DNA from: a virus
Lineage: Duplodnaviria; Caudoviricetes
Strand: one strand, 5' to 3'
DNA length: 54,120 nucleotides
IMG/VR virus record: IMGVR_UViG_3300009788_000118
Span: 1 to 54,120 of that record
The notes under the pieces were generated by a model. That model saw nothing but the letters and a program-made list of their open reading frames with translations. It was not told the DNA's origin and did no database searches. Position numbers and translations under genes: made by a program. Shown in pieces: positions 29,596-51,420 of this stretch; position 1 is the first letter of the stretch, and the number at the start of each line of letters is the position of its first letter.

Positions 29596-29627
29596 AAGTG
29601 TATTTTTACTGTGTTAAAAATACGAAG
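29596..29627. repeat. 13-6-13 palindromic site, copy 7
   Basis: AAGTGTATTTTTA-CTGTGT-TAAAAATACGAAG. Confidence 0.75.
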
Positions 29628-29642
29628 ATACAAGGAGATATA

Positions 29643-30467
29643 ATGAGCAAAGTATCCATCATAATACCAGCACGACATGAGCCGTATCTTCAAAAGACGA
29701 TCGATGTTATTTTGGAGGCAGCTGAAGGAGATATCGAAATTATAGCAATTCTTGATGGATATTGGCCAGATGTACCTATAAAAGATGATCCTCATGTCAA
29801 GCAGATTCACTTCTCGGAGTCAAAGGGTATGCGAGCGTCAATCAATGCAGGCGCAAGAATCGCACAAGGAAAATATCTATTGAAATGTGACGCTCATTGT
29901 TTATTTGATGAAGGTTTTGATAAAAAACTTAAGACGGATTGTCAACCTAACTGGACGGTTGTGCCTATAAGATACTCTCTTTGTGTTAGAATTTTAGATG
30001 GTAAATTGACAGATTGGTCACGAAAGATACATAAAAAGTACGAGTTTGAATATATTGCTTCTGATGACTTAAAAGGTAGAAAATGGCCTGAGTATGCTAA
30101 ACGAGTAGAAGGTCAGAAGATTGTAGATTTGATGACGTCCCAAGGTTCATGTTGGTTTATGCATCGAGATAGGTTTTGGGCATTGGGTGGAGAAGATGAA
30201 GTAAACTATGGACAAATGGGTCGAGAAGCTCAAGAAATTTGCCTAAAGACGTGGTTATCTGGAGGACGTTTTATTCTCACTCGAAATACATGGTATGCTC
30301 ATTGGAGCAAAGCAAGAGGAAATCCTAGATTTTTAAGCAGAGAAGAGAAACAAAAATCTGTTGATTTTGCCAAAGATTTTTGGTTAAATGATAGATGGTC
30401 TCTAGCTACTAAAAAACTGAGTTGGTTGATAGAAAAGTTTGCTCCGGTGCCGACATGGAACCTCTAG
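29643..30467 (+). CDS. Glycosyltransferase family 2 (GT-A)
   Basis: VSIIIPARHE, ILDG, GMRASINAG, KCDAHC. Confidence 0.88.
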   Translation: MSKVSIIIPARHEPYLQKTIDVILEAAEGDIEIIAILDGYWPDVPIKDDPHVKQIHFSESKGMRASINAGARIAQGKYLLKCDAHCLFDEGFDKKLKTDCQPNWTVVPIRYSLCVRILDGKLTDWSRKIHKKYEFEYIASDDLKGRKWPEYAKRVEGQKIVDLMTSQGSCWFMHRDRFWALGGEDEVNYGQMGREAQEICLKTWLSGGRFILTRNTWYAHWSKARGNPRFLSREEKQKSVDFAKDFWLNDRWSLATKKLSWLIEKFAPVPTWNL

Positions 30468-31102
30468 AATATATAAAGAAGAAGTATGAGTTAGGTAGAT
30501 ATGGTGAATCAGTTCCTATAATTTTGTCTAAGGTTTTTAGAATTGGCATGTATGAACTTTTTAATGATCTTGGATATAAAATTGGATGTGAAGTAGGTGT
30601 TAGAGAAGGAAGAAATGCTGGAGAAATGATTCAAAAGATTCCAGGTTTGATGTTGTATTTGGTTGATCCATACAAAAATCATTCTTCTGCTCGAAGAAAG
30701 TATAGTGAGAAGCATTATGATAGAACGCAACGGAGAGCTCACCAAAGGTTAGATAAATTAAATGTGAAGTTTTTTGAGATGTTTAGTGAGCAAGCAGTAG
30801 AATTTGTAGAGGACAATTCGCTTGATTTTGTTTATATAGATGCAGATCATGATTATGATTTTGCAATGCAGGACATCATTATTTGGTCAAGAAAGGTTCG
30901 AAGTGGCGGGATTGTAAGTGGTCATGATTATTATCTTTCAAGGAGGCATGGACATCGAGGAGTAACCCATGCTGTTATTGATTATTCTAAGATGCTTTAT
31001 ATTTCCCCTTGGTTTTTGACTAGTTCTAGAGAAGAAGCTAAGGAAAGAAATGAGTATGGGCTTATTGATACTCTTCCTTCTTGGTTTTGGGTAAAGCCAT
31101 GA
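30455..31102 (+). CDS. Class I SAM-dependent methyltransferase (Methyltransf_24-like)
   Basis: GCEVGVREG, LVDPY, LDFVYIDADHDY, GGIVSGHDY. Confidence 0.88.
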   Translation: MEPLEYIKKKYELGRYGESVPIILSKVFRIGMYELFNDLGYKIGCEVGVREGRNAGEMIQKIPGLMLYLVDPYKNHSSARRKYSEKHYDRTQRRAHQRLDKLNVKFFEMFSEQAVEFVEDNSLDFVYIDADHDYDFAMQDIIIWSRKVRSGGIVSGHDYYLSRRHGHRGVTHAVIDYSKMLYISPWFLTSSREEAKERNEYGLIDTLPSWFWVKP

Positions 31103-31950
31103 ATCCGATAACATGTGAAATAGATCCGAGCAATCGGTGTCAGAATAATTGTAGTTTTTGTATGTATAAAGACTACCGCAGTTTTAATTCTGTGGATATG
31201 TCTTTAGATATGTATTTGGAGCTCATTGGGGATTTGAAAGATATTGGTGTGAAATCGATTACTTTCACAGGCGGTGGTGAACCATTAATGAATCCGAATT
31301 TTAATGAGATGGCAGAAGAAGCTTATAAACTTGGATTCGAGTTGGGGCTTATTACTAATGGGATATCCTTGAATGATCTTAGCAATTTTGATGTCTTCAA
31401 ATTTATCAGAATCAGTTTGGATGCAGCCACAAGAGAAACCTACAGAGCTTTAAAGGGTAATGATGATTTTGATAGGGTGGTTGAGAATATAAGATGTATG
31501 CCTTTGTGTTATGATGTCGATGTTGGCATTAGCTTTGTGGTATGTGAATTAAATAGTCATGAGGTAGATAAAATACAGATATTAGCTGAAGAATTACCTG
31601 TTGAGTATCTCCAACTTAAGCCGATATATGGAACTAATCTTCCTAAAATCGATGCTTTTAATTCCACAATAATAACAGACAGGCACAAAATTTCTAATCA
31701 CCTTCCTTGCTATATAGCTGGTCTTGTGGGTGTTGCTACTGCTGATGGTAAAGTATGGTACTGCTGTCAGAAGCGTGGAGTAGAGGATTTTTGCTTAGGG
31801 AATTTAGATCAACACTCTTTTGCAGAGATTTGGCAAGATAGATGGGCATTCCATGAGAAAACGAGATCTTGTAAAACTTGTCGATATCAAAATTATGTAG
31901 AGGAGTTATATAATCCAACAAAAGTGGTGAGACATAGATGGTTTCTTTAA
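31099..31950 (+). CDS. Radical SAM/SPASM protein
   Basis: CQNNCSFC, TGGGEPL, ITNG, ISLDA, DGKVWYCC, GNL, CKTC. Confidence 0.9.
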   Translation: MNPITCEIDPSNRCQNNCSFCMYKDYRSFNSVDMSLDMYLELIGDLKDIGVKSITFTGGGEPLMNPNFNEMAEEAYKLGFELGLITNGISLNDLSNFDVFKFIRISLDAATRETYRALKGNDDFDRVVENIRCMPLCYDVDVGISFVVCELNSHEVDKIQILAEELPVEYLQLKPIYGTNLPKIDAFNSTIITDRHKISNHLPCYIAGLVGVATADGKVWYCCQKRGVEDFCLGNLDQHSFAEIWQDRWAFHEKTRSCKTCRYQNYVEELYNPTKVVRHRWFL

Positions 31951-31964
31951 AAAGGAGGAGAATC

Positions 31965-32237
31965 ATGATTAAGCAAAGTAACAGGTCTCCACAGATTGGG
32001 CAGTCGGAGGGTTTGGTCGGAGATATGAACTTTGGCTCGGCTATGAATGCAGTTTTAAATGGTGAGAGAGTGAGGCGATTAGATTGGGAAAACGAAGATG
32101 TTTTTCTTGCGATGAGAGATGAGCAACTTATGATTTTTAAACCGGAAGATAATATGCTCCATCCATTAACAGTTTCCGCGGGAGATATGGCAGGGACAGA
32201 TTGGATTGTGATAAAGAGGATGGAAGTGGTTCATTAG
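31965..32237 (+). CDS. DUF2829 (Tad2-like) protein
   Basis: MNFGSAMNAVLNGERVRRLDW...DMAGTDWIVI. Confidence 0.7.
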   Translation: MIKQSNRSPQIGQSEGLVGDMNFGSAMNAVLNGERVRRLDWENEDVFLAMRDEQLMIFKPEDNMLHPLTVSAGDMAGTDWIVIKRMEVVH

Positions 32238-33977
32238 ATGACTGATCTCTCAATACTCATACCTGCTCGTAATGAGATGTTTCTTTCAAGAACTATTGAA
32301 AATATTCTTGAAAACATCGAAGGTGACACAGAGATTATTGCTGTGTGTGATGGCAACTGGCCAGATCCTACAGTTGAAGACCATCCAAGAGTGAATTTGA
32401 TTTATCACAGTGAGCCTATAGGTCAGCGAGCAGCAACAAATGAAGCAGCACGTTTATCTCAAGCAGAGTTTGTGATGAAGGCAGATGCACATTGTGCTTT
32501 TGATAAAGGTTTTGATGTTAAACTTATGGCGGATTGTAAGTATGATTGGACGGTTGTTCCACGAATGCATAATCTTCATGCTTTTAATTGGAAATGTGAA
32601 TTATGTGGTAATGAAACGTATCAAGGGCCTGAGCCAAAAAAATGTGAGAAATGTGGAAAATGTTGTATAGATACTATGTTTGAGAGAAAGATAATATGGC
32701 AGCGACGCGAAAATCGTAAATCAGATTACATGTGGTTTAATAAAGATTTAAAATTCTCTTATTTCGATAGAAGTCATTTAAAAGAATATGGTAATGACAT
32801 TTCTGCTCTTAAACATAAATATGCTCACTCTCGTCGAGATTGGGCAAAAGGAAAGATTACAGATCAGATGTGTGCGATTGGTGCATGTTGGATGATGCAT
32901 CGAAAACGATATTGGGAGTTAGATGGAGTTGACGAGGCTCATGGCTCTTGGGGTCAAATGGGTGTCGAAATTGCTATGAAAAGTTGGCTATCCGGTGGCA
33001 GGCAGGTTGTGAATAAGAATACTTGGTTTGCCCATATGTTTAGAACACAGGGCGGAGATTTTGGCTTTCCATATCCCCTAAGAGGAAAAGAAGTACAAAA
33101 TGCAAGAAAGTATTCTCAGAAGCTTTGGAAAGGAAATCTGTGGCCGAAGGCAATACGACCTTTATCATGGTTAATAGATCATTTTAGTCCTTTACCTGGA
33201 TGGGATGAGGAGTTGAAAAAGATGGATGAAGTTAAGAAACCTCAAATAAAAACCAAAAAAAGAGGGCTTACAAGAGGATTAGTTTATTATACTGATAATC
33301 GTTGTGAGGAACGAATCTTAGGTATAGTTCGGAGACAACTTACAAAAATATGCAAGGGTTATGAGATTATATCGGTGTCTCAATATCCAATAGACTGGGG
33401 AAGAAATATTGTGATGCCTTTTATACATAGCCCTCTGAGTATGTTCAAGCAGATGTTACGAGGTCTTCAAGAGAGTACAGCTGATATTGTGTTCTTTGCA
33501 GAAAATGATGTTTTATATCATTCATCTCATTTTGATTTTACTCCAACAGAGGAGAAAACTTTTTACTATGATCGGAATCGATGGGCAGTAGATACTGAAA
33601 CAGGAAAAACTGTCTTTTATCGATCTAATTGTGTTTCTTTGATGGTAGCTTTCAGAGAAGTTTTATTAAAGCATTATACTAAAAAGGTCGAGATTACAGA
33701 AAAAGATGGATTCAGAGGTCGTTTAGGATTCTCACCTCCGAAGGGATTAGAAGGTCCAGATAGGGTTGGTATTGCTCGATCTTATATGGCTGAGTTTCCT
33801 AGTGTAGATATCAGACATAATAATACTATGACGCGAAAACGCATGGAAAAGTCTATGTTTAGAAATGAACGATCATGCAAAGATTGGGCAGAATCCGATG
33901 GTGTTGTTGGATGGGGAAAAACAAAAGGACGATTTGATGAATTCTTGCGAGAAGTTGAGAGGGATAAGAAAGAGTAA
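32238..33977 (+). CDS. Two-domain glycosyltransferase (GT2 + second GT-A-like domain), paralogue of 29643 gene
   Basis: LSILIPARNE, KADAHCAFD, WLSGGR; Zn-ribbon insert CELC..CEKC; second domain VFFAENDVLYH. Confidence 0.85.
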   Translation: MTDLSILIPARNEMFLSRTIENILENIEGDTEIIAVCDGNWPDPTVEDHPRVNLIYHSEPIGQRAATNEAARLSQAEFVMKADAHCAFDKGFDVKLMADCKYDWTVVPRMHNLHAFNWKCELCGNETYQGPEPKKCEKCGKCCIDTMFERKIIWQRRENRKSDYMWFNKDLKFSYFDRSHLKEYGNDISALKHKYAHSRRDWAKGKITDQMCAIGACWMMHRKRYWELDGVDEAHGSWGQMGVEIAMKSWLSGGRQVVNKNTWFAHMFRTQGGDFGFPYPLRGKEVQNARKYSQKLWKGNLWPKAIRPLSWLIDHFSPLPGWDEELKKMDEVKKPQIKTKKRGLTRGLVYYTDNRCEERILGIVRRQLTKICKGYEIISVSQYPIDWGRNIVMPFIHSPLSMFKQMLRGLQESTADIVFFAENDVLYHSSHFDFTPTEEKTFYYDRNRWAVDTETGKTVFYRSNCVSLMVAFREVLLKHYTKKVEITEKDGFRGRLGFSPPKGLEGPDRVGIARSYMAEFPSVDIRHNNTMTRKRMEKSMFRNERSCKDWAESDGVVGWGKTKGRFDEFLREVERDKKE

Positions 33978-34384
33978 TGGCTGAATTTCTAATACAAGCA
34001 AAAGGTCATTGGATGGATGCTATATCACAGTCAATCAAGGATACATGGGATGTGAAAATGCAGGCAAGGTTCGCCAGGAGAAACTTAAAGGGTAGTCCTA
34101 TCGTAGTTAGACCGGATGGTTGGAAGTGGGGAAAAAGTGAAAGATTGCCTGAATATATTGTAGTCAAAGTTCCAAGTATGACTGTTGCAGATGCAGAAGA
34201 ATATATTCTGCCTGAATATGGAACATTTCTAGGACCAAATGCTACAACCGTAGAAAAAAAAGTAAAGAGGAGAAAATACCAATTTGCAGTAAGCCAGGTT
34301 GATACACTAATTTCTTTGAGTCAGAATACTACAACTACAAGTAAGAATACTTTTATCAGCTTGACTGTTGATAGGACTAAATAG
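33977..34384 (+). CDS. Hypothetical protein
   Basis: TAATG coupling. Confidence 0.7.
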   Translation: MAEFLIQAKGHWMDAISQSIKDTWDVKMQARFARRNLKGSPIVVRPDGWKWGKSERLPEYIVVKVPSMTVADAEEYILPEYGTFLGPNATTVEKKVKRRKYQFAVSQVDTLISLSQNTTTTSKNTFISLTVDRTK

Positions 34385-36280
34385 ATGGCAGAAATAAAAA
34401 AGACGATAGAAGAAGATGGTAATGGAGATTATACTTCTCTTGAAGCCTGTATGAATGCTAATGAACAAGATCTTACAGATGCAGGAGGGGATTATTTTCT
34501 TGCTGAAATAAATGGTACAGAGTTAGGTGGAGCCTGGAATTCTCCTGATACTTCTCCTGTAGACATAGATGGATGGACTACCTCAGCAACAAGTTACATA
34601 TCAGTTTACACAACCTCTACAGCTATACATCCTGGTAACTGGTCAACAGGAAACAACGAATATAGATTAGTAGTGGGACATGGTGAGTGCATAACCATAA
34701 TCGAGCAGTATGTTAGAATCGATGGAATTCAGATGAGTTTTCAGGTTAATTACGACTCTAGCCATTATGCTATCCATGTTAGCCCTGATAGTAGTGATAC
34801 TGACCACCGAATATCTAATTGTATCCTAAAAGAAGTTGGAAGTTATACTGGAGAACATGGTATTCTATTTGCTTGGCTTCCTGCGCAAACCAATATGACT
34901 GCCAAAGTGTGGAACTGTGTTATGTATGATTTTGACGGAACCGGTCAGTCTGCGGTTCATATTAATAGTGAGGGAGATTGGACTGTTGATATATATAATT
35001 GCACTATTGATAATTGCGGGGCATACGGCATTGAAAATGCAGGAGGTCAGGCAGATTGTAGAGTTTATAATACAGGAGCAATCAACTGTGGTACTGCTGG
35101 ATTTTTAAATCTTGACGTAGATACAACAAACAGCACCACAGCACCTACATTTGTTGATATAGATGCAGAGGATTATCATCTTGCGGCTAGTGACGTTACT
35201 TGGACAGGTCAAGGGACTGATACTCCGAGTGGATATCAATCAAGTCTAGATATCGATGGAGAGACTAGAACAAGTACATGGGATATAGGGGCGGATGAGA
35301 ATTTGTTGGTAGCATCTCCCTCTTTATCACCAAGTATATCACCGTCTGCATCAGAATCTCCCAGCATTTCACTTTCTCCATCACCTTCGGTGTCTTCATC
35401 CGCAAGTTTAAGTCCTAGTGTGTCTCGAAGCGAATCTGCGAGTATTTCTCCATCGATATCGTCTTCATTATCACCTTCAGCTAGTTTATCACCTAGCATT
35501 AGTCCGAGCATTAGTCCTTCAATATCACTTTCTATATCTTCATCATTAAGTCCATCAGCATCGATAAGTCCTTCAATTAGTCCTAGTGAATCGGCTTCTA
35601 TATCACCATCAATTAGTCCATCTGTGTCTCCGTCAGCTTCTATTAGTCCATCTATATCTCCATCTGAATCTTTAAGCATTTCACCATCAATCAGTCCTAG
35701 TATTTCTCCATCTGCTAGTGTTTCTCCTAGTGTTAGTCCATCTATATCATTATCTATATCATTATCTATATCTCCATCTATATCTCCTTCAATATCACCA
35801 TCTGCTTCTGAATCGCCAAGTATATCATCCTCGATCTCTCCTAGTGTGTCACCATCTGCATCTATCTCTCCTTCAGCATCTGTATCCTCATCCATTAGTC
35901 TTAGTGAATCACCCTCAATTTCACCAAGTATAAGTCCTTCTGTTAGTCCAAGTGCAAGTATTTCACCATCGGCATCAATATCAGCATCTATTTCTCCAAG
36001 TCCAAGTTGTCCAGCAGGTTGTGCTGCATGTGAAGATTGTATAGAAGTAACATTTGCTGGTCTTTCAGGTACTTGTGAAGTTGGTTGTGTTGATTATAAT
36101 ACTACTTATACACTTAGTCAGGTTGCTGATACTTGTGTGTGGCAATATACTTCTGGTAATCTTGTTGTTTCTGTAACATGTTCTGCTTCGTATTGGTGGC
36201 TTAAGGTTGTAAATGATGGAACAGAGTGTGCAGTTTGGAAATATCCAACTGCAGATAGATCAGACTGTCCACGTTATTAA
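34385..36280 (+). CDS. Beta-helix (pectin lyase-like) protein with (S-X)n Ser/Pro repeat and Cys-rich C-terminus
   Basis: GDYTSL, repeated IxNC/VYN motifs, DYHL, DIDGETR..WDIGADE; repeat at 35315-36007. Confidence 0.8.
   Translation: MAEIKKTIEEDGNGDYTSLEACMNANEQDLTDAGGDYFLAEINGTELGGAWNSPDTSPVDIDGWTTSATSYISVYTTSTAIHPGNWSTGNNEYRLVVGHGECITIIEQYVRIDGIQMSFQVNYDSSHYAIHVSPDSSDTDHRISNCILKEVGSYTGEHGILFAWLPAQTNMTAKVWNCVMYDFDGTGQSAVHINSEGDWTVDIYNCTIDNCGAYGIENAGGQADCRVYNTGAINCGTAGFLNLDVDTTNSTTAPTFVDIDAEDYHLAASDVTWTGQGTDTPSGYQSSLDIDGETRTSTWDIGADENLLVASPSLSPSISPSASESPSISLSPSPSVSSSASLSPSVSRSESASISPSISSSLSPSASLSPSISPSISPSISLSISSSLSPSASISPSISPSESASISPSISPSVSPSASISPSISPSESLSISPSISPSISPSASVSPSVSPSISLSISLSISPSISPSISPSASESPSISSSISPSVSPSASISPSASVSSSISLSESPSISPSISPSVSPSASISPSASISASISPSPSCPAGCAACEDCIEVTFAGLSGTCEVGCVDYNTTYTLSQVADTCVWQYTSGNLVVSVTCSASYWWLKVVNDGTECAVWKYPTADRSDCPRY
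35315..36007 (+). repeat. Coding (S-X)n repeat, ~230 aa
   Basis: SPSISPSASESPS... with diversified Ser codons. Confidence 0.9.
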
Positions 36281-36293
36281 AAAGGTAAAATAA

Positions 36294-39200
36294 ATGGCAA
36301 CTCCTGTAATAGATAGTGTTGGTGCTTTAGTACATGGCCAGTCCTGTATTATTACCAGCACAGGCACTAATTTTGGTACTAAATCAGTTGCTGCTCCTAC
36401 TATGTGGGACGACGGTTCTGGAGTATCAGAAGGAGATCCACCAAGTTCAAAGGGATGGACAGGTAACTATCCAAGTGGTCTAACTGGTGGGAATGCACAA
36501 TATAATTTGCAATATCGTCCAGTTAATTATAGAAGCATAGCTGGTCCACATGGTATTACCAATTATTATTTAGCAGGATGTGGCTTAGGTTATGGTATTG
36601 CCGGAGCTGATACAGCTAATGTAATGGTATGGAAGTCATTAAGTATCTCAAAACCGCAGAAAGTTTTTATTAGTTTTTATCAGAGATTTGATCCGAGTTG
36701 GGTGTTTGGGGATGATAATAATATAAAGGAAGTGCTTTGGTCAGTAGGTACTCCTTATGGTCCCAGTTATTGGTATGTTACCTTTAATCCAGTCTTTAGC
36801 AGCCCTACCAATTTAGGAGAATGGAGAACTACCTGTGAATGGGGAAATGTGGCAACAAGCCCTTGGTTAGGCTGGGTAAAAGTCGAGATAGAGTTTCTCT
36901 TTGATAGTAGTGGTGGCAAGGCAGATATTTGGGATAATGGCGTACAGAAGACGTTTGCTACTTGCAATACAGATTCATGGAGTGGAACAGATCGTCATCT
37001 TTCAGTTGGAGGTTTTCAGCGTCCTCATTCTGATTGGGGTGGTGAACCTTATACTGATAATTTTCGTTATCAAGCAGATATTTATATAGATACAGCATGG
37101 TCAAGAGTAGTCATTGGTGATAATCAAACTTATGCAAATTGCACAAAAAGGGAAATACAAATTCCTACAGCATGGGCTACTGATGAAATAACAGTAACAG
37201 TTAATCAAGGTATTTTTTCTGCTGAGGATGATATATATGTATTCGTTATTGATTCGAATGGAGACCCGAATGTTACTGGTTATGGTCCATTAAGCTTTGG
37301 AGGTTCTGTAAGTCCATCGCCATCATCTTCAATATCACCGTCATCTTCAATATCACTATCACCGTCATCTTCATTATCTTTATCTCCGAGTTCTTCAGTA
37401 TCGCCTTCATCATCACCAAGTCCCTCAGGAGGTACGATTTCACCAAGTCCTTCATCTTCAATCTCTCCAAGTTTGAGTCCATCAGCAAGTATATCGCCTT
37501 CAGTGAGTCCAAGTCCTGAATGTCTTGGTGGGGGACAAGGTGATGAATTTAACGACGAATCTATCGATGTTTTATGGACACAAGATTCAGGAGTTGGAGG
37601 TTCCTTTGCGGAGACTGCTGGAGGTGATTTGGAAGTAACTTCTGGTAGTGGTAATATTTGGGGTTCTACATTTACTCCGACTTGGATTTATCAATGTGTA
37701 TGAGGAGATTTTGATGTTTATATAAAAGTAACTGCTGCAGATATTAATATTTTTGCTGAGGCTGCTGGAATAATTTTTCAAGAGTTTGATCAACCAACTA
37801 ATTATAATATCTTTGTTTCTTTGGAATATTTTGGAGGTCTGATATATCAAAGACGAGATACTATTAATAATAGTAGTGATACAACAGATATTGGTGGTGC
37901 TGCAAGTCCATGTTGGCTTAGATTACGCAGGATAGGTCAGTATTTTTCAGCATATTATGCTACTGTTGAACCCACTCAATTAAATGATTGGATATTAATT
38001 AATGCTCCTATAGACTTAGTTACTTCTGCAAGGGGTTTTTTAGGTCATGGTGCTATTCATCCGGAGAGTGGTTCTCAGTTTGTATCTACTGTTGATTATT
38101 TTAGAGCTCCAGCTCCTGCATGGATATGGGATAGTGGTGTTTGCAATGAGGGGACAGTAGTAACAAATACGTGTTCTTCAGCTAGTATCAGTCCATCAAT
38201 ATCACCAAGTATATCTCCAAGTGCGAGTCTGTCTGCTAGTTTGAGTCCATCTATATCTCCATCTATATCTCCATCTGAGTCTCCTTCGATTTCTTCGTCT
38301 CCATCTCCAAGTTTAAGTCCATCTGCTTCTTTGTCTCCATCGTTGTCACTTAGCATATCTGCTTCGGTATCTCCTTCGATAAGTCCATCTGCATCGATTT
38401 CGCCTTCTATCTCACCATCTCCATCGGAGTCAGGAAGTCCAAGTTTATCTCCCAGTATCTCACCATCAGTATCACCTAGTGCTAGTTTATCATCTTCAAT
38501 CAGTCCAAGTGAGTCAGCATCTGTATCACCTAGCGTAAGTCCTTCAATCTCTCCAAGTTTGAGTGCTTCTATTAGTTCATCAGCTTCATTGTCTCCATCT
38601 ATATCTCTATCAATATCTCCATCAGTTAGTCTTTCGATTTCACCGTCTGTATCTCCAAGCATTAGCCCAAGTATTAGTCCCTCAGTTTCTCCGTCAGCGT
38701 CTATATCTCTTAGTTTGAGTCCATCAATTTCGCCAAGTATATCTCCGAGTGCTAGTATATCTCCGAGTTTATCTCCGTCTATATCTCCTTCAGTTAGTCC
38801 ATCAGCGTCGTTATCTCCGAGCATATCTCCAAGTATTTCTCCGAGTATAAGTCCAAGTGAATCTCCCAGTTTATCTCCATCAGTATCTCCATCTGCATCA
38901 ATTAGTCCATCTGAGAGTTTGTCGATATCTGCGAGTATATCACTTTCACTTTCACCTTCGATATCTCCTAGTGAGTCTCCAAGTATATCTGCAAGTGTAT
39001 CACCGAGTGAGTCTCCATCCATATCTCCAAGTGCAAGTTTGTCTCCAAGTTTATCTCCATCACTTAGTCCATCAATTTCACTGAGTTTGTCTCCATCACT
39101 TTCACCATCTGAGTCTCCGTCTATATCTTTTAGTCCTTCTCCATCACTTAGTCCATCAATCTCATTGTCATTAAGTCCATCGATTAGTCTGAGTATATCT

Positions 39201-39401
39201 CCAAGTCTAAGCCCTTCGGCTAGTGTTAGTCCTTCGCTTTCTCCAAGCATAAGTCCTAGTATTAGCCTAAGTGTTTCGCCTTCGATATCTCCATCACCCT
39301 CAGTATTTATTACTGAAAGGATGTTTGTTGCATTTTCAAGTACGAAACCTGATGTATCTTTTGAAGGCAGAAAACCAGATATCACTTTTACAGGAGATTA
39401 A
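36294..39401 (+). CDS. Large lectin/lyase-like protein with two (S-X)n repeats; single in-frame TGA at 37701-37703 (readthrough, nonsense mutation or error)
   Basis: ORFs 36294..37703 and 37821..39401 are in the same frame with no other stop; IYQCV*GDFDVYIKV reads as one continuous beta-sandwich domain. Confidence 0.7.
38175..39302 (+). repeat. Coding (S-X)n repeat, ~375 aa
   Basis: SPSISPSASLSPS... with diversified Ser codons. Confidence 0.9.
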
Positions 39402-39406
39402 ATAAA

Positions 39407-39754
39407 ATGCCAGCAACACTGTCAGTACATGCAATAGAAGAATCAACTTATATAATTACATTAGCTTTTACTGATGAAGATGGTGATCCTGTAGTTCCTA
39501 CTATGATTACATGGACTTTATCTAATACTACAGGTACGGTTGTAAATTCACGATTAGACGTTGCTATTGCAGTTCCTGCTGCTTCAGTTGATGTTTTACT
39601 TCAAGGTGATGACTTGCAGATACTCAGTGGAGAAGTAAATCAAGGAGTAAGAACTTTTACAGTAGAAGCAACATATCTTTCGCTTCTTGGTGCTGATCTT
39701 CCACTGAATGCAAGTGTGCGATTTATTGTGGATAATCTTTTGATGATAACATAA
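39407..39754 (+). CDS. BppU-N/Ig-like virion adaptor protein
   Basis: ITLAFTDEDGDPVVPT...TWTL; beta-rich. Confidence 0.55.
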   Translation: MPATLSVHAIEESTYIITLAFTDEDGDPVVPTMITWTLSNTTGTVVNSRLDVAIAVPAASVDVLLQGDDLQILSGEVNQGVRTFTVEATYLSLLGADLPLNASVRFIVDNLLMIT

Positions 39755-39779
39755 AGACAACCCTGGGCCGATGCGTGTT

Positions 39780-39846
39780 TCCTCCTGGGCAGTATTCGTG
39801 AGGGGATGTAACCGGCACATTCCCTTGCGATACTGTTTTCTGAGGA
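39780..39846 (+). other. Long G-U-rich RNA hairpin (possible RNase III processing site)
   Basis: TCGTGAGGGGATGT/ACATTCCCTTGCGA, extended by GGGCAGTA/TACTGTTT and TCCTC/GAGGA. Confidence 0.55.
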
Positions 39847-39875
39847 TGAGGCTCTTTAAATGAGGAGGTAAGATT

Positions 39876-40190
39876 ATGGCTGCTCCAGTGGTAACAAAAA
39901 GTATAGGTGTTCAAAACATCTTTAGTGATTGGTTGTTTGTGAAGGGATATTTCAATTGGTCTCTTTGGGGGACATGGGTTGGAACAGTAACATTGCAGAG
40001 AACTTTTGATGGTGGGAGTACACAACTTGATGTTACTACATCGGCTGCAAACACGGAGTCTATAAAACATGAACCTGAAGGTGCATACTACCGTTTCGGC
40101 ATTAAGACTGGTGATTATACCAGTGGAACTTTACAGGGAAGGATAGGGGCTGATCCAAGTTTTGTTCCAAAGAAACAAAGTATGACTTAA
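39876..40190 (+). CDS. Small beta-sandwich virion protein
   Basis: GTWVGTVTLQRTFDGG...YYRFG...YTSGT; GAGGAGG RBS. Confidence 0.7.
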   Translation: MAAPVVTKSIGVQNIFSDWLFVKGYFNWSLWGTWVGTVTLQRTFDGGSTQLDVTTSAANTESIKHEPEGAYYRFGIKTGDYTSGTLQGRIGADPSFVPKKQSMT

Positions 40191-41305: not shown

Positions 41306-41698
41306 ATGGAGCAGTGGAAGAAAGTTAAGGATTATCCAGATTATGAAGTTTCTGATCAAGGTAGAGTAAGATCTTATAAAAGATCTGGACCACCGCAGAT
41401 TCTTCAAAATGTTTGTAGTAATTATTGTCAGGTTTCGCTTTATAATGAACACGGTGTAAGGAACTTTTTAGTTCATTTACTTGTAATTAAAGCTTTTATA
41501 GGCCCACGTCCTGATGGTTGCGAAGCAGATCATGAAAACGGTAAGCATCGAGATAACAAACTATCTAATCTTCGATGGTTAGAAGTTTGTGCTAATAGAA
41601 AGCATAGGTTTAAACCTAAAATGATCGAGAAAGCTAGATCACAAAAGATATGGGATGATTTAGTAAAAAGATTTCAAAAGGAGGAATGCCATGCCTAA
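41306..41698 (+). CDS. NUMOD4-HNH homing endonuclease
   Basis: EQWKKVKDYPDYEVSDQGRVRS; VHLLV..AF; ADHENGKHRDNKLSNLRW. Confidence 0.92.
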   Translation: MEQWKKVKDYPDYEVSDQGRVRSYKRSGPPQILQNVCSNYCQVSLYNEHGVRNFLVHLLVIKAFIGPRPDGCEADHENGKHRDNKLSNLRWLEVCANRKHRFKPKMIEKARSQKIWDDLVKRFQKEECHA

Positions 41699-45591: not shown

Positions 45592-45974
45592 GCTTAATAG
45601 TTAATCTTGCAAAATTTATTGATACAAATACATCCTTAACGATGGATATAGATCTTTTTGTAGGAGCAGATGTTTTAGACGCTCCTGCGGAATCTGTAGT
45701 CATTAGGGAGATTCCAGGATCAACGGAAAACTTCTCTACGATGGAATCAAGAGCGATCCAAGTAGCAGTAAAGAGTTTATCCTATGTTGAAGCGGAGACT
45801 CTGGCATGGACTGTTTATAACCTCTTAAAAAATAAGTCGGGATTTAATGATGTCGACCTCGCGGGAGAAAATATCTTCTATTGTGAAGTCATTGGAAGCC
45901 CAGTTCCTATGGATAGGGATGAGCGAGGCAGTTTTATTTTTACATCAAATTTTTTGATCAAAAGGGCATTATGA
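45588..45974 (+). CDS. Tail terminator protein
   Basis: IQVAVK, PVPMDRDERG..IFTSNF. Confidence 0.7.
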   Translation: MSLIVNLAKFIDTNTSLTMDIDLFVGADVLDAPAESVVIREIPGSTENFSTMESRAIQVAVKSLSYVEAETLAWTVYNLLKNKSGFNDVDLAGENIFYCEVIGSPVPMDRDERGSFIFTSNFLIKRAL

Positions 45975-46426
45975 ATCATAAATCTGTTTTTGTATCTAAG
46001 TCTGCAAAGCCGGAACTTTTAGCTCCAAGATATTATGCTAAAGATAAAACTAAAACTAAAGCTAAAGGTAATGTTATTAAAGCTGATCTTGTCAAGTTCA
46101 AAAAAGCTACAGTCTTTTGGATGGGCAAACCGTTGCCTAAATCATTGTTAGGTTTTGGAGAACATCTTGGGTTAGATATTCTGAAACTGGATGGTGATAT
46201 AACATTACTTATTAATGCCCAAGCTCTTGTGATACACGAAGTCGATACTTATAGATTTAATGGAGTCATTGCTGCAATTAATCTTGCAGTGAATTATGAT
46301 GTTCCTGTTTTTTGGATTGACAAAAATGTTGCACCTCGTCAATGGATGTTCTCTTTTAAAAAAGTTTTCGTGGGGGATCTTTATGCAGGATTCTTCTGGA
46401 AAGAGGTTATGCAATGGATCGTGTAG
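45971..46426 (+). CDS. Hypothetical protein (first gene of second glycan cassette)
   Basis: ATGA coupling. Confidence 0.6.
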   Translation: MNHKSVFVSKSAKPELLAPRYYAKDKTKTKAKGNVIKADLVKFKKATVFWMGKPLPKSLLGFGEHLGLDILKLDGDITLLINAQALVIHEVDTYRFNGVIAAINLAVNYDVPVFWIDKNVAPRQWMFSFKKVFVGDLYAGFFWKEVMQWIV

Positions 46427-48090
46427 CAATAGCATTTAACAACAAATTAGGTAATTTTATTTACATGACGTCTGCGGTAAAGATTCTTCGGCAGTGGGGA
46501 TATAAGGAGATAGATCTAATAACAGATCAATCATTCTTAAGCAGTCCTGCTGAGGAACTTACCGCAGATGTTTTCGACAATGTAGTGACGGAATATGATG
46601 AAGAAGCTTATGATCGTATTTTCCGAGCTGAGTGGTCTGTTCCGATGAATGCTCAGAATCGACTTTTTGGGGGATTTGATCAAGCTACGTCTCGAAATGT
46701 TGATTGGAATGGAAGAGGTATACATGAAGTACAGGTCTATCTTAATATGATCGGAGCTTCTTGGGAGGATTTTGATGGGTATATACTTTATCCAAAAGAG
46801 GTGGCAGTATTAAATCCTTTAAAGTCAAAATTTATTGCTTTAGCAAATTGCTCTGGCTCAGATCAAGCAAATCTTAAAGGATGGCCCAAATTTCCTGAGC
46901 TTTCAGAGGTTTTAAGTGGGTTAGGATATAATATAATACTTGTGGGAGCTGGCGATGAACTTAAAGGATGTAAAGGTCATAACTTCGTGGGGAGTTATTC
47001 AATCAAAGAAACCGCAGATATTATTCGACAATGTGATCTCTTGATTGCTTCATCAACAGGTCTTGCTATTGTAGCTGATGCAGTTGGAACTCCAGTGATA
47101 CAGTTAGATGGTCCAATTCCATCGACAAAGACGCATCCTCTTCTTGTTGATTATTCAATCGTTCGAAGTTATATTTCATGTGCTCCATGTTTTCAATCTC
47201 TTCTTTTTACTTCATGTAAAGATCCAATTTGCATGAAGAACATACAAGTGGATAAGGTGATTAATGCGACGACAAAGATGTTATCATCTCCTCCAGTAAA
47301 AGGACATTTCTTTGGGTCTTATCAGTCTCCAAAAAGTGATGTACCTGATTGTGATGATAGGGTCGCATATTTAATTGCATGCTTTAACCGTTACCATGTT
47401 TTATATGAGTTTTTGGCTAATCTCGAACATAGCAGTCCTCAAAAAGGTGAGATTTTCTTTCTTAATGATGCCAGTTCCGATCCAAGAATTGAGACTGCAT
47501 TAAAATCATTTCATCTTGACGACATCAAGATACACTATCTCGAAACAGATTACAAAGAAAAACTTGCACTTTTGAGGAGGTATAAGAAAATGCCTTCGGC
47601 ACATGCCTACAATCGACTTTTTAGAGAAGCTTTTAAAATGCATGAAAAAGATCCTTTTGATTTTATAATGATTCTTGATCCAGACTCTATTATGCACGAT
47701 CGATGGATTCAAAAGATGATTGTGACATATCGAGAGGCTAAAAAACTTCACCCAAATATCGGGCTTTTTTCTGGATTCAATAATGAAAATCATCCGATAT
47801 ATGATAATGAAGAAACAAAAGAGATTTATCGAGGCACATATAGCGACTATCGCTTGCGAAACGGAGTAAATCTTCAGTTCATGTTCGAGCCGAGTTTCTT
47901 TCCGGAACATGGATTTTACGATCTTGAAACTGAACATGCAACTCTTTCGTCTGATCTTCCAAAGAATGAGATGCTCACAAAGAAGGGATTTAAGAGTATG
48001 ATTCTTGTACCGTCTATGCTTCAGCAAATTGGAGCTTACGACTCAGCTCTTCCAAGAAGGAGGAGTAATGAAGTTGCAAAGGATTTCTGA
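46414..48090 (+). CDS. GT9 (heptosyltransferase-like) + GT2 fusion glycosyltransferase
   Basis: KLGNFI, KGWPKF, STGLAIVADAVGTP, CAPC...C...CM; second domain IACFNR, LNDASSD, ILDPD. Confidence 0.85.
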   Translation: MDRVAIAFNNKLGNFIYMTSAVKILRQWGYKEIDLITDQSFLSSPAEELTADVFDNVVTEYDEEAYDRIFRAEWSVPMNAQNRLFGGFDQATSRNVDWNGRGIHEVQVYLNMIGASWEDFDGYILYPKEVAVLNPLKSKFIALANCSGSDQANLKGWPKFPELSEVLSGLGYNIILVGAGDELKGCKGHNFVGSYSIKETADIIRQCDLLIASSTGLAIVADAVGTPVIQLDGPIPSTKTHPLLVDYSIVRSYISCAPCFQSLLFTSCKDPICMKNIQVDKVINATTKMLSSPPVKGHFFGSYQSPKSDVPDCDDRVAYLIACFNRYHVLYEFLANLEHSSPQKGEIFFLNDASSDPRIETALKSFHLDDIKIHYLETDYKEKLALLRRYKKMPSAHAYNRLFREAFKMHEKDPFDFIMILDPDSIMHDRWIQKMIVTYREAKKLHPNIGLFSGFNNENHPIYDNEETKEIYRGTYSDYRLRNGVNLQFMFEPSFFPEHGFYDLETEHATLSSDLPKNEMLTKKGFKSMILVPSMLQQIGAYDSALPRRRSNEVAKDF

Positions 48091-48809
48091 TGAATGGTCC
48101 GGCTGATATTCCGTATATCGAATTGATTAAAAGATTCAAAGCTAAAACCATCTTTTTTCACGAGCTCAAAGGTCGTGGAAGGAGATTGGCTATTCGACAT
48201 GACGTAGATCACGACATCGATAAAGCAATATCAATGGCTAGATTTGAAAGTCTTCATGAAATTTCATCGACTTATTTTCTATTACCAACAGCTAGATACT
48301 TTGATTACACAAATGCTTTTTTAGCCAAATGTAAGACTCTTACAGATCTTAGACACCGCATTGGTTTTCATAATAATGCTGTCACAATGTGGTATAAATC
48401 ATCTAAACCTATTTTAAACATCGTCAAAAAGCCGATTAGGTTTTTAAGGCAGGCTGGATTTAAAATTGATTTCTCTTCGTCTCATGGATCATTTGAAGGA
48501 CGAAAATTGGGATTTCGTAACTTCGATGTTTGGAGCGAAAGTCATGATCGTTCTACGTTGGGAAATCCTCAGATCTCTTTAAGAGATGTAGGCTTAAAAA
48601 ATGAAGTTTATTTTATGCCATTTACTTTTTATCTATCTGAGTCTGGAGCTAAATGGCGTGGTGGCATGTTAAATGGTCACAAATCTTGGTTTGAACAGGA
48701 TTTTCCTTTTTTGAATCAAGAAAAGGTTTATAAACAAGTGGATAAGTTTGCCAAGTTTGAGAGGGCTTCAGCTCAGTTATTAGTTCATCCTAAATGGTGG
48801 CCGGTATGA
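48090..48809 (+). CDS. Polysaccharide deacetylase-like protein
   Basis: IRHDVDHD, STYF, IGFH, SSHG, QLLVHPKWW. Confidence 0.75.
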   Translation: MNGPADIPYIELIKRFKAKTIFFHELKGRGRRLAIRHDVDHDIDKAISMARFESLHEISSTYFLLPTARYFDYTNAFLAKCKTLTDLRHRIGFHNNAVTMWYKSSKPILNIVKKPIRFLRQAGFKIDFSSSHGSFEGRKLGFRNFDVWSESHDRSTLGNPQISLRDVGLKNEVYFMPFTFYLSESGAKWRGGMLNGHKSWFEQDFPFLNQEKVYKQVDKFAKFERASAQLLVHPKWWPV

Positions 48810-49654
48810 TAAAATTTTTAGTCGTGAGATGTACTACATATGATCTTGCTGGAGTAGCAATGATTACAGGAGCAGTTAATGGTTTCCAAGAACTTGGAGC
48901 TGAGATTGATCTTCGGATACTAGTTGCTGATAAAGATTATACTTGGCATGCCTCTTATATTACATATGTCGATCCCCGTGAACGAAAAGAAGCCTTTAAG
49001 TGGGCAGATGTAATTCTCGACATCGGTGGAGTTTGTAAAGGATTTGGTAGTCGCTTATCTTCGTATATTCAGACCGCTAAAAATATGAAGATACCTTATG
49101 TTTACATGAGTCAGAGTTTTATTGATCCAGATCCGAGAGCTCTTGAAGTTGATGCAATCATTGCAAGAGGGCCTCGATCTGCAGAAGCAGTTGAGAAAGC
49201 ATCAGGAAAAAAGGTGTCTGTTGGTGCAGATTTAGGATTTCTTGTAAATCCAAGGAAGATACGTCAAACTAATTATTCTAGAGGTTTTACGACATATCAA
49301 AATCGAGATTTGAGTGGTATGCGAAAGCAGGTTGATTGGGAATCTATACAAGTTATATGGAAAAAGGATAAAGGACATCAAGTATTCGAACCTCGATTAG
49401 GTCTTGATGAATATATCTCTTCAGTTGAACATACGTTTGGTTTTATATCAACCCTTAAAGAGGTGCACACTGCACGTTATCATGCAGGTGTTGCTGCGAT
49501 TTTAGCAGGGATAGATTTACAAGTTTATCCCTTTGAAGGTAATAAATCCAAATATACAGATTTGTTATCATTTCGATCGCTATCTCCAAATCAACTCAAG
49601 CTTTCAGCTTTATCATCTTGTATAATAGCATTAGAGGTTGCTAATGGAAGTTAA
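48806..49654 (+). CDS. Polysaccharide pyruvyl transferase-like protein
   Basis: IARGPRS, ADLGF, TARYHAGVAA. Confidence 0.7.
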   Translation: MIKFLVVRCTTYDLAGVAMITGAVNGFQELGAEIDLRILVADKDYTWHASYITYVDPRERKEAFKWADVILDIGGVCKGFGSRLSSYIQTAKNMKIPYVYMSQSFIDPDPRALEVDAIIARGPRSAEAVEKASGKKVSVGADLGFLVNPRKIRQTNYSRGFTTYQNRDLSGMRKQVDWESIQVIWKKDKGHQVFEPRLGLDEYISSVEHTFGFISTLKEVHTARYHAGVAAILAGIDLQVYPFEGNKSKYTDLLSFRSLSPNQLKLSALSSCIIALEVANGS

Positions 49655-50087
49655 TGTAGCATTACAAAGAAGGCATAGTTGTAGATCTTTTAGATCTGAA
49701 AAGGTGCCAAAGTCTTTGATAAAACGCTTAACAGTTGCCTTTAGTCAGGCACCTTATGCAAGTGGAGGTCCACGAAGGAGATTATATATTGTAGATAAAC
49801 CCGAATCTTTAATGGAGCTTCAAGTTGCATGTTGTCATCAATCTCATGTAGGGTCTTGTACAGCAGCGTTTATTATATGTGGTGAAGATACGAATGTATC
49901 CTTAAGATCTGGACACTCAAAATATGTTTTTGATTGTGTAGCATCTGCTATGTGTATTGATTTAATGGCTACATCCTATGATTTAGGTATATGTTGGATA
50001 GGTAATTTTCATCCTGAAAAGGTCGCAAAGTTTATTAAATATGATCTAAAGCCTGTAATCATTTTGGTCGTGGGGAATCCTGAATGA
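49644..50087 (+). CDS. Nitroreductase family protein
   Basis: RRHSCRSF, APYA, DLGICWIG. Confidence 0.85.
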   Translation: MEVNVALQRRHSCRSFRSEKVPKSLIKRLTVAFSQAPYASGGPRRRLYIVDKPESLMELQVACCHQSHVGSCTAAFIICGEDTNVSLRSGHSKYVFDCVASAMCIDLMATSYDLGICWIGNFHPEKVAKFIKYDLKPVIILVVGNPE

Positions 50088-50791: not shown

Positions 50792-51420
50792 TATCTGAAG
50801 AGGAAAAGAAATTATATAAAATCTCAGGTGATAATACATTAGCTGAAAAAGGTTATGCATCATTGGAAGTTTTCTTAAATATTTACGAGGATTTCTTTAA
50901 GGATCTTGATTTAAGGAAGAAAACTATCCTTGAATTTGGCTCTGGCAGATTTGAAATGGCAGAAGTTTTTAAAAAACATGGAGCTGTTTATACAGGAATT
51001 GATAAAAGTCTTGGTGTATACAATGTAGGAGATAGTCGAGGGTTTAGAATGTATCGACAAGATTATAAAAATAATCCTTTAAAAGTTATCGTAGATAGTT
51101 TCGATGGCATATTCTGTAGAGAGTCGGTTAATGCTTTCTGGTATTTAGACGATGACAACCATGTCAATCAAGTTAGAAAATGGTGCAGAACACTCAGGGA
51201 TAATGGATGGGGTTGGATACTTCCATGTAATCATGTACCAACCAGTATTGTGATCTCCGATTGGGACATTTTTAGGGTTTTAGATATTCAAATAAGGGCA
51301 TTCCAAAGCGCAGGGTTTAGGTGTTTACATTTACCAAGGATGCTGGCAGAGAGATATGGTCAGCAGAAGAATGTTATTAACACACCATTATTTATTAAAA
51401 ACTTGGAGGTACCAACATGA
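50788..51420 (+). CDS. Class I SAM-dependent methyltransferase
   Basis: ILEFGSGR, YTGID, FDGIF, LRDNGWG. Confidence 0.8.
   Translation: MISEEEKKLYKISGDNTLAEKGYASLEVFLNIYEDFFKDLDLRKKTILEFGSGRFEMAEVFKKHGAVYTGIDKSLGVYNVGDSRGFRMYRQDYKNNPLKVIVDSFDGIFCRESVNAFWYLDDDNHVNQVRKWCRTLRDNGWGWILPCNHVPTSIVISDWDIFRVLDIQIRAFQSAGFRCLHLPRMLAERYGQQKNVINTPLFIKNLEVPT

Follow-up and report, generated by a model that had tools for sequence, protein, structure and literature searches.

A phage gene cassette linking polypeptide GalNAc-transferase-like enzymes to long serine-alternating tracts: a candidate system for mucin-like virion stalks

Serine-rich tracts serve as stalks or linkers in several described systems. 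In the serine-rich-repeat proteins (SRRPs; Fap1, GspB, PsrP, SraP), tracts of the (S-X)n type are O-glycosylated in the cytoplasm by glycosyltransferases (GTs) encoded in adjacent genes, and the stalk bears a binding region. The polyserine linkers of Saccharophagus degradans, Teredinibacter turnerae, and Xanthomonas albilineans are homopolymeric Ser stretches in secreted enzymes that are not known to have dedicated GTs. Among viruses, Mimivirus has glycosylated surface fibrils and encodes its own glycosylation, and the Ig-like Hoc appendages of the T4 capsid adhere to glycans. Virion glycosylation in mycobacteriophages (Che8, Corndog, and Myrna) was reportedly described by Freeman and colleagues in Cell Host Microbe in 2023. 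According to three papers, phage-encoded GTs of mycobacteriophages modify virion proteins in the cytoplasm, with the glycans located C-terminally on the subunits of capsid and tail tube (PMC11256854, PMC12619734, PMC12363180). The same papers name Che8 gp110 and Corndog gp38 as phage GTs (PMC12363180) and state that phage-made virion glycans, described for a few mycobacteriophages, shield capsids and tails from antibodies (PMC11256854, PMC12363180). Here, we analyze the virus record IMGVR_UViG_3300009788_000118 (Duplodnaviria; Caudoviricetes), the entirety of which (54,120 bp) is referred to below as the window. It encodes two adjacent proteins, A and B, with long tracts in which Ser alternates with other residues (SX tracts), and two GTs, GT_a and GT_b. 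We consider it fairly probable that these genes represent a widespread phage system that makes mucin-like O-glycosylated stalks, in which A and B would be modular proteins displayed on the particle and their tracts the acceptors of GT_a and GT_b.

Serine-alternating tracts in two adjacent proteins

Uninterrupted (S-X)n sequence totals 676 amino acids (aa) at four places in A and B. An initial annotation of this DNA had reported about 680 aa, and its coordinates differ from ours by no more than 3 nucleotides (nt). Protein A (34385..36280, plus strand) consists of a beta-helix domain (34385–35314), a single tract of 232 aa, or (S-X)116 (aa 311–542, nt 35315–36010), and a Cys-rich C-terminal domain (36011–36277). 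Protein B (36294..39401, plus strand) has an N-terminal module (36294–37304) followed by two short tracts (37305–37517), one of 42 aa (aa 338–379, nt 37305–37430) and one of 26 aa (aa 383–408, nt 37440–37517), with three residues between them. Then come a ConA-like domain (37518–38177), a long tract of 376 aa, or (S-X)188 (aa 629–1004, nt 38178–39305), and a C-terminal tail with two KPDxxF motifs (39306–39398).

In all tracts, 100% of the in-register positions are Ser. The alternating residue X is P > I > L/A > V > E in order of frequency, mostly in the form S-P-S-[IALVE]. Because P and non-P residues alternate in 63–69% of neighboring X pairs, the repeat unit is roughly S-P-S-x. Within the window tracts, 82–87% of the in-register Ser residues have Pro at position −1, +1, or +3, and Pro at these positions is the context favored by polypeptide GalNAc-transferases (ppGalNAc-Ts). 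The Ser codons had been described as scrambled, as would be expected under protein-level selection, and this is borne out: all six are used in the A tract and five or six in the long B tract, with the TCN and AGY classes both present in proportions like those of background genes. Tandem Repeats Finder, run over 34000–40000, returned short imperfect arrays of 6–36 nt and no more. We therefore conclude that the repeat is maintained at the protein level and does not reflect recent expansion of DNA. The long minus-strand open reading frames (ORFs) that lie over the tracts are rich in D, G, E, and L and are shadows of the repeat.

The initial annotation divided this region into three genes, of which we find two. 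The intervals 36294–37703 and 37821–39401 share one frame, which is intact over 1035 codons apart from a single TGA (37701..37703, plus strand) in the ConA-like domain. This domain aligns to its homologues across the TGA, and the column has Ser in 7 of 14 of them (otherwise T, D, E, or A). In addition, a 20,809-nt contig from run X1 spans 34300–39800 in one piece with three differences from the window. At 37702, a G>C difference turns the TGA into TCA (Ser); at 35427, another G>C turns CGA (Arg) into CCA (Pro) within the A tract; the change at 35227 is silent. It should be noted that run X1 may derive from the window's own source sample, so that the contig counts as a second assembly and not as an independent sample. 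Given that both nonsilent differences restore the expected residue, C-to-G errors or minor variants may be present in the window record, and, because the codon is TCA in the second assembly, B is best read as one protein of 1035 aa. Recoding of TGA was considered and rejected, given the TCA codon of the second assembly and the ordinary use of TGA as a stop at the end of 23 of 63 ORFs. Separately, 23 of the 25 contigs from run X1 fit 34300–39800 only in part, most of them matching short stretches of SX tract at 90–95% likeness, which suggests that the sample contains many other SX-tract genes.

The tracts were said to link domains of carbohydrate-active appearance, and the modules that we recognize agree with this. 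The N-terminal domain of A is a right-handed beta-helix, with a weak match to Pfam Beta_helix and 129 homologues at E ≤ 0.001. These are mostly from uncultured bacteria and archaea, and in several the beta-helix is joined to a LamG or a peptidoglycan-binding domain. The Cys-rich C-terminal domain of A (89 aa) has no relatives among proteins of 347–1105 aa and is otherwise known only from two IMG/VR loci (L039 and L041), both with an orthologue of A that carries it. The N-terminal module of B (aa 1–337) has a TIG/lyase-like jelly roll/TIG arrangement. Among 47 aligned homologues, 15 match Pfam Polysacc_lyase (PF14099) and 13 match TIG, and the window's own sequence falls under Pfam significance for PF14099. 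A profile of the module matches the glucuronan lyase 2zzj (E 0.0015), and 2zzj is also the top Foldseek match of its AlphaFold2 (AF2) model (pLDDT 93.6; E 1.6e-6), followed by alginate lyases. By fold and family match, then, the module is a polysaccharide-lyase-like jelly roll (PF14099 / PL20-like).

Neither protein appears to start with a signal peptide, as had been noted. The peak hydropathy (12-aa window, first 40 aa) is 0.06 in A and 1.46 in B, whereas 54 of the 120 homologues of the beta-helix and 89 of the 140 of the lyase module reach at least 2.2. By this measure, A and B are without an N-terminal hydrophobic segment and have lost the signal peptide relative to their homologues, which fits modification and assembly in the cytoplasm.

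Glycosyltransferases of the ppGalNAc-T kind

GT_a (29598..30467, plus strand) is a GT-A glycosyltransferase (Pfam Glycos_transf_2, E 2.1e-12) and a paralogue of the N-terminal domain of GT_b. Its weak matches to PDB sequences include ppGalNAc-T10 and Toxoplasma GalNAc-T3. GT_b (32238..33977, plus strand) is predicted to be a two-domain enzyme, with a ppGalNAc-T-like N-domain (aa 1 to ~335) that contains a four-Cys insert and a nucleotidyltransferase-like C-domain (aa ~343–579). As a single sequence GT_b has weak PDB matches, ppGalNAc-Ts among them. When a profile of 38 GT_b sequences is used, the 13 best matches among PDB sequences are all ppGalNAc-Ts (best 1xhb, E 9.1e-11); ppGalNAc-T1, T2, T9, T10, T4, T7, and T12 come before other GTs, and generic GT2 enzymes appear from E 6.7e-6.

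Structure comparison leads to the same group. For the AF2 model of GT_b (pLDDT 90.9), the Foldseek matches listed to rank 48 are all ppGalNAc-Ts except for K4CP at rank 30. VIA-align places it closest to GalNAc-T1 (8v9q; Z 24.9, rmsd 2.9, 269 aligned) and Toxoplasma GalNAc-T3 (8uhv; Z 23.2), with the next other GT-A fold at Z 17.6, and assigns the C-domain (343–579) to the IspD/LicC/MobA nucleotidyltransferase fold (Z 11–12). Five residues (D83, H85, H266, F268, and R269) are invariant in the 38 sequences, and the DxH and "HxFR" motifs that they form align to "lDaHce" and "gHvfR" of GalNAc-T1. By analogy with ppGalNAc-Ts, we take DxH and the downstream His to be metal (Mn) ligands. At the position of the Gal/GalNAc-T motif WGGENxE, GT_b reads S237-W238-G239...E244 ("SWGQMGVE"); the W, G, and E are invariant, and the motif is not identical. 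Both a ricin-type lectin domain and an N-terminal membrane anchor were looked for in GT_b and not found, the protein beginning at the GT-A domain. Judged by profile and modeled fold, the N-domain of GT_b is closest to polypeptide GalNAc-transferases.

As a side observation, the four-Cys insert (aa ~119–161 of the GT-A domain) is near-invariant in the 38 sequences, with a weak match (E 0.013–0.03) to the eL37 zinc ribbon, that of a ribosomal protein.

A tblastn search of GT_a and GT_b against 50,697 GenBank phage records gave no match at E ≤ 0.001 (the presence of Che8 and Corndog in that set was not checked). As far as sequence similarity can tell, GT_a and GT_b are an enzyme family not found in isolated phages.

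Co-occurrence of GT_b and SX tracts

A search of IMG/VR with the GT_b profile yielded 205 relatives, and the counts given here rest on the best 80 of the 205 loci; 32 loci fetched via other queries served as controls. Co-occurrence of SX repeats with the GTs in relatives had been set beforehand as the test on which the proposal could fail. What we found is an uninterrupted (S-X)n run of at least 40 aa in 66 of the 80 loci, and in all 26 of the loci for which both 10-kb flanks were available, compared with one of the 32 controls (L014; Fisher p ~1e-15). Even with loci that are not independent and a control set that is small, the association is very large.

The runs are generally long, with at least 100 aa in 61 of the 80 loci, a median of 234 aa for the longest run, and a maximum of 774 aa. 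A Ser-rich ORF lies on the GT strand in 69 of the 80 loci, in 23 an SX ORF begins no more than 500 nt downstream of GT_b, and GT_a-type and GT_b-type ORFs are found together in 70. Across loci, X is P (33%), A (18%), V (11%), I (8%), S (7%), E (7%), or L (7%), and T makes up 1.8%.

One relative (G002) is a complete genome with direct terminal repeats and the full cassette. From TerL it continues through two small genes to an SX protein (head of 425 aa, tract of >450 aa, and tail), followed by a fusion of GT_a with a methyltransferase, GT_b, an orf115-like protein with an SX tail, portal, scaffold, cement, major capsid protein, and an SX-tailed protein of 139 aa. Relatives of GT_b also occur on 25 contigs of metagenome-assembled genomes (MAGs; species representatives). 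By binning, Patescibacteria account for 12 of these contigs, archaea for three, and other groups for the remainder, and 12 of the 25 have an SX ORF. Among them, a 168-kb contig from a Thermoplasmatales archaeon bin (L120:10001–15697) has a GT_a/GT_b-like gene and, after it, an ORF of 1477 aa that includes 943 Ser-rich residues. The system may thus also be present in archaeal cells or proviruses.

Tracts on virion proteins of relatives, and the C-terminal tails

In several relatives, the tract is attached to a recognizable virion protein. One is a major tail protein (L077:19455–20513; phrog_9522, E 4.9e-13), in which an SX tract of 113 aa and 13 further residues make up the last 126 residues. 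Elsewhere, a tract connects a head of 217 aa to a domain resembling the central tail fiber J (L057; E 9.3e-19) or precedes a "virion structural protein" domain (L088; E 1.4e-15). For a general tally we took flanking domains of at least 70 aa from ORFs with at least 100 Ser-rich residues. The resulting 91 domains include LamG (six), DUF2341 (three), F5/8-C (two), beta-helix (two), CBM96, and others by Pfam, and tail, baseplate-wedge, and virion-structural families by PHROGs. There is also a recurrent class of small proteins in which a head of 100–130 aa is followed by a tract that runs to a C-terminus of the "SPSFPF" kind. PHROGs gave no match for nine of ten further SX-protein domains or neighbors. 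One of those is a 393-aa ORF that ends in an SX tract after the head-tail genes of another relative (L052:18589–19767) and precedes two small ORFs and a 634-aa ORF, which by position resemble tail chaperones and a tape measure; gene order alone would make it probably a tail-tube protein. In the window itself only A and B carry tracts, the major capsid protein being without an SX tail.

The tails that follow the tracts are short, have two to five strand-like repeats, and fall into several families (duplicates, ORFs open at the locus end, and tails of <8 or >70 aa were left out). The tail of B has 31 aa and ends in "...STKPDVSFEGRKPDITFTGD"; the double KPDxxF motif that had been described is present. 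Directly behind B, the cassette closes on its 3' side with orf115 (39407..39754, plus strand), a small protein that is conserved in 44 homologues at 42–82% identity. It had been proposed as a BppU/Ig-like protein that could anchor the fiber, an identity for which neither Pfam nor PHROGs offers support, and NCBIfam likewise gives no match; a distant relative in L035 matches phrog_912, of unknown function (E 1.9e-5).

The hidden Markov model of orf115 is positive in 15 of the sources scanned. A strict tail of the form [KR].?P.[IV].[FVS] is present in four of ten scorable loci with orf115 versus none of 45 without it. The gene lies directly behind the SX gene in the window and in three relatives (L037, L042, L043), the orf115-like protein itself has an SX tail in three others (L033, L035, L052), and phages that lack the cassette commonly have orf115 as well (L019–L032). 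The protein that takes the place of orf115 in L014 (101 aa) shows no similarity to it. Prediction of a 1:1 complex from the orf115 alignment and the last 40 residues of B, run without controls, scored 0.19 against a mark of 0.32, which speaks neither for nor against binding. Co-occurrence makes orf115 a candidate, and unproven, partner of the C-terminal tail of B.

Interpretation and alternatives

The explanation that we favor is as follows. A and B would present glycan-degrading or glycan-binding heads (beta-helix, TIG/lyase-like jelly roll, ConA-like) on long (Ser-X)n tracts, and the tracts would be the dedicated acceptor of GT_a and of the two-domain GT_b encoded just upstream. The Ser residues of the tracts would be O-glycosylated in the host cytoplasm, late in infection, with the methyltransferase, the C-domain of GT_b, and here also the radical-SAM enzyme (see below) tailoring or supplying the glycan. 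A glycosylated tract could then form a stiff, protease-resistant, mucin-like bottle-brush stalk; at 0.25–0.31 nm per residue, the 232 aa of A would span ~58–72 nm and the 376 aa of B ~94–117 nm. Because the same tracts are found on tail-tube, tail-fiber, and other virion proteins of relatives, we consider display of the stalks on the particle most likely; there they would hold enzymes or lectins outward, shield the particle, or both. The tail of B, with its two KPDxxF motifs, may be a docking element, and the stalks might have roles in reach, shielding, adhesion, or exopolysaccharide digestion. A more general proposition is that of a mobile "phage mucin" system, in which ppGalNAc-T-like enzymes O-glycosylate (Ser-X)n of up to ~770 aa on tail-tube, fiber, and decoration proteins, yielding glycocalyx stalks of up to ~100 nm or more with lyases and lectins. 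We put this forward tentatively, as having somewhat less than an even chance of being right.

Several observations weigh against the stalk explanation. A ppGalNAc-T-like fold, here a predicted one, is no proof of a peptide acceptor. SX tracts are rare beside homologues of the head domains (three of 120 for the beta-helix and none of 150 for the lyase module), and the domains of A and B are often found in proteins that begin with a hydrophobic segment, so that A and B could be free enzymes released at lysis. Against PHROGs, A and B match no known virion protein (there is a compositional match to phrog_15511 inside the repeat). The survey went in one direction, from GT_b to SX, its controls were few and picked via other queries, and its 80 loci are not independent, including as they do near-duplicates (L055/L056, L063–L065, L039/L041, L042/L043, L077/L080, L035/L107). 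The 14 GT_b loci without a run of at least 40 aa are all short-cut (4–13 kb) and neither help nor hurt. In the control locus L014, different GT-like genes, together with orf135 and a beta-helix protein, adjoin the gene of a poly-Ser protein of 1227 aa; the C-terminal tail of this protein is repeated, and a gene of 101 aa comes next. Finally, Ser glycosylation, the identity of the sugar, and incorporation into the virion are inferred for every member, A and B included. The earlier proposal of virion stalks glycosylated by neighboring GTs has gained from the ppGalNAc-T kind of these enzymes and from the SX tracts on virion proteins of relatives, but glycosylation itself belongs to what we infer.

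Among the alternatives, A and B may be receptor-binding tail fibers or tailspikes and not capsid fibers, which would be a special case of the explanation favored here, at another location. Heads of the beta-helix and lyase-like types are characteristic of tailspike depolymerases, SX tracts occur with tail-fiber-J-like and weakly baseplate-like domains in relatives (the PHROG tally includes baseplate wedge families), and no tail-fiber gene was recognized elsewhere in the window. However, the genes sit between portal and prohead protease, not in a tail module, and have no N-terminal tail-attachment domain of a known family; moreover, no tail genes are recognized in the window, which is possibly an incomplete genome. 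All in all, we view this placement as possible, if somewhat doubtful. It is also conceivable, though in our judgment unlikely, that A and B are glycosylated and are not part of the virion, acting instead as depolymerases or lectins released at lysis, or as cell-associated proteins, on host exopolysaccharide or biofilm to the benefit of progeny phage. The lyase-like, beta-helix, and ConA-like heads and the N-terminal hydrophobic segments common in homologues would suit such a role, as would the lack of any match to a virion family and the status of the cassette as cargo that is absent from close relatives. Set against these are the loss of the signal peptide, the position of the genes inside the head module (portal to protease), the same tracts on tail and other virion proteins of relatives, and the recurring short, repeated C-terminal tails after the tracts, which look like docking elements.

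Glycosylation is set aside altogether if the SX tracts are flexible or extended spacers and the GTs act on the host envelope, on DNA, or on another virion protein. The tracts do join CAZyme-like (carbohydrate-active enzyme-like) and lectin-like modules in the way that polyserine linkers do, such linkers being mentioned in papers on the genomes of Saccharophagus, Teredinibacter, and Xanthomonas albilineans, and some homologues have T-rich or PT-rich linkers in place of SX. We nevertheless find mere spacers improbable: SX tracts are present in 26 of 26 fully flanked GT_b loci versus one of 32 controls, the GT is closest to enzymes that O-glycosylate peptides, a spacer needs no Ser at strictly every second residue, and tracts also end small proteins in which there is nothing to link (those with "SPSFPF" ends, the L077 tail protein, and orf115-like proteins). 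As for B being a pseudogene and the tracts decaying low-complexity DNA without function, the one in-frame TGA at 37701–37703 is the only point in favor. That codon reads TCA in the second assembly and Ser is the commonest residue at the column in homologues; the frame is otherwise intact over 1035 codons, Ser is kept through mixed TCN and AGY codons, and the architecture recurs in dozens of phages, all of which makes decay very hard to credit.

Gene neighborhood and mobility of the cassette

The plus strand of the window runs from the large terminase (26572) and a Mu-like portal (28055) through GT_a (29598), an S-adenosylmethionine (SAM)-dependent methyltransferase (30422), a radical-SAM/SPASM enzyme (31081), a Tad2-like gene (31938), GT_b (32238), and orf135 (33977) to A (34385–36280) and B (36294–39401). 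These are followed by orf115 (39407), orf104, and orf152, and then by the prohead protease (40663), scaffold, a cement-like protein, and the major capsid protein (43336). A replication module makes up the minus-strand arm: nine of its ten largest ORFs have replication or nucleic-acid-type families, and no glycan enzyme is found among these ten.

Comparison of 12 portal relatives shows that the GT/SX cassette is mobile cargo, because closely related phages are without it; the set that moves comprises GT_a, GT_b, the methyltransferase, and from one up to several SX proteins. In the two with 61–66% portal identity (L001 and L003), the portal leads directly into orf104 or the scaffold and capsid genes, and another relative (L004) has an unrelated 5-kb insert at the position of the cassette. 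L052, with a portal identity of 43%, has the cassette in the same slot as the window.

Within the cassette, the methyltransferase (30422..31102, plus strand; Pfam Methyltransf_24, E 2.5e-12) has a homologue in 61 of the 80 GT_b loci, is fused to GT_a in L035, and probably tailors the glycan. The radical-SAM/SPASM enzyme (31081..31950, plus strand) matches Pfam Radical_SAM and SPASM, its NCBIfam matches all being far under the cut-offs. With a homologue in just one of the 80 loci, it is an accessory outside the cassette core. An ORF upstream of the L014 cassette, cut by the start of that locus, has a Cys-rich C-terminus that is SPASM-like by eye. The small Tad2-like (DUF2829) protein (31938..32237, plus strand; Pfam Tad2-like, E 1.7e-8) is related to Thoeris anti-defense 2 and has homologues in 18 of the 80 loci, either as a part of the cassette or as a frequent passenger.

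Immediately ahead of A, orf135 (33977..34384, plus strand) is a separate ORF in the same frame, with a TAG between the two (34385 − 33977 = 408 = 3 × 136), and corresponds to an N-terminal module of the beta-helix protein family. It is upstream of or fused to the beta-helix in all six of the loci L013–L018 (fused in three), and it matches N-terminal parts of 13 of 120 listed beta-helix homologues, ten of them at E ≤ 7e-17 near residue 20. Pfam, PHROG, and NCBIfam gave no family match for it, and the ESM Atlas returned low-confidence, unrelated look-alikes. In many homologues, orf135 and the beta-helix of A make up one protein behind an N-terminal hydrophobic segment. In three phage-like contigs (L015:6733–10990, L016:7456–10969, L018:7773–11074), the fusions and the genes that precede them begin with signal-peptide-like hydrophobic segments, which would be odd for virion proteins. 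A 130-aa ORF at 41306–41698, between the prohead protease and the scaffold, resembles HNH/NUMOD-type homing endonucleases by eye.

The initial annotation envisaged about a dozen glycan-related enzymes in two cassettes. Of these, we recover four genes at 29598–33977 and one GT9-like glycosyltransferase of 558 aa (46414..48090, plus strand). The latter matches heptosyltransferase II in the PDB (1psw, E 0.0029), and its first ESM Atlas match (score 0.97, 204 shared features) leads to viral clusters in which 90–98% have Glyco_transf_9. It is kept directly after the head-tail connector genes in L003, which is without the first cassette in the part seen, and it could possibly be the start of a second glycan cluster. 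Searches of PDB sequences with 48794–49651, 50084–50788, and 51417–52589 gave no match, and PHROGs returned nothing or weak unrelated matches for the ORFs in 45971–53011. Tail tube, tape measure, baseplate, and tail-fiber genes were not recognized anywhere in the window; the record may be incomplete, or its tail genes too divergent.

Comparison with described systems

We found no description of the GT/SX cassette in the open-access literature, and a prior mention elsewhere is possible; the cassette is widespread and apparently undescribed. Many genes of the SX and orf115 types stand in public records without functional annotation. If the proposed explanation is correct, phage virion glycosylation would be extended by a different enzyme family, nearer than any other from prokaryotic viruses to the transferases that initiate mucin glycosylation in animals, acting on a dedicated, gene-encoded acceptor of hundreds of residues, with a wide spread over uncultured phages and contigs binned to Patescibacteria, archaea, and others. 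The more general "phage mucin" proposition, if true, would give mucin-type O-glycosylation its first counterpart in prokaryotic viruses and amount to a large unnoticed virion surface chemistry (at least 205 IMG/VR loci, none in isolated phages). The predictions that follow concern the chemistry of the particle surface, adhesion to and digestion of host exopolysaccharide, and evasion of proteases and defenses. The cassette might also provide a compact two-enzyme route to mucin-like glycopolymers in bacteria, and it suggests an annotation rule, namely that a protein with an (S-X)n tract, if encoded beside a GT_b-type gene, be treated as a candidate glycosylated virion protein.

The glycosylation described for mycobacteriophages has a parallel in the C-terminal SX tract on the major tail protein of the relative L077. 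In contrast to that system, the putative acceptor here is dedicated, extends to hundreds of residues, and is also found on separate fiber-like proteins with CAZyme or lectin heads. The Mimivirus fibrils and T4 Hoc represent a similar idea with different proteins, enzymes, and hosts, and we claim no homology to either. As in polyserine linkers, Ser-rich spacers lie between carbohydrate-binding and catalytic modules; unlike in those linkers, Ser alternates with P, A, V, I, L, and E, there is no signal peptide, and the tracts are tightly tied to ppGalNAc-T-like GTs.

The initial annotation saw in A and B a viral analogue of the SRRPs. The alternating Ser design stands, in that such tracts carry or flank a binding region in both, which is a likeness of design and not of descent. 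The analogy does not extend to a signal peptide or a cell-wall anchor, no LPXTG motif being present in the translations of A and B, and no accessory Sec genes (SecA2/SecY2 type) are found among the annotated genes of the window. The GTs are of another class (GT-A, ppGalNAc-T-like, not GtfA/GtfB), the setting is a phage, and the NCBIfam matches (ser_rich_anae_1 and the ClfA/Sdr SD-repeat adhesins) are compositional, reaching 35–57 bits against cut-offs of 650–2500. By motif and profile, A and B are not members of the SRRP family.

GT_b and the tracts also resemble eukaryotic ppGalNAc-Ts (CAZy GT27) and their mucin substrates. The N-domain of GT_b shares with the former its profile, its predicted fold, the DxH motif, and a later His, but GT_b has a nucleotidyltransferase-like domain in place of the ricin-type lectin, a Cys4 insert, and no membrane anchor. 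The tracts are, like mucins, long, repetitive, and rich in Ser and Pro; unlike mucins, they are Ser-only and strictly alternating, with almost no Thr, and their setting is cytoplasmic and prokaryotic.

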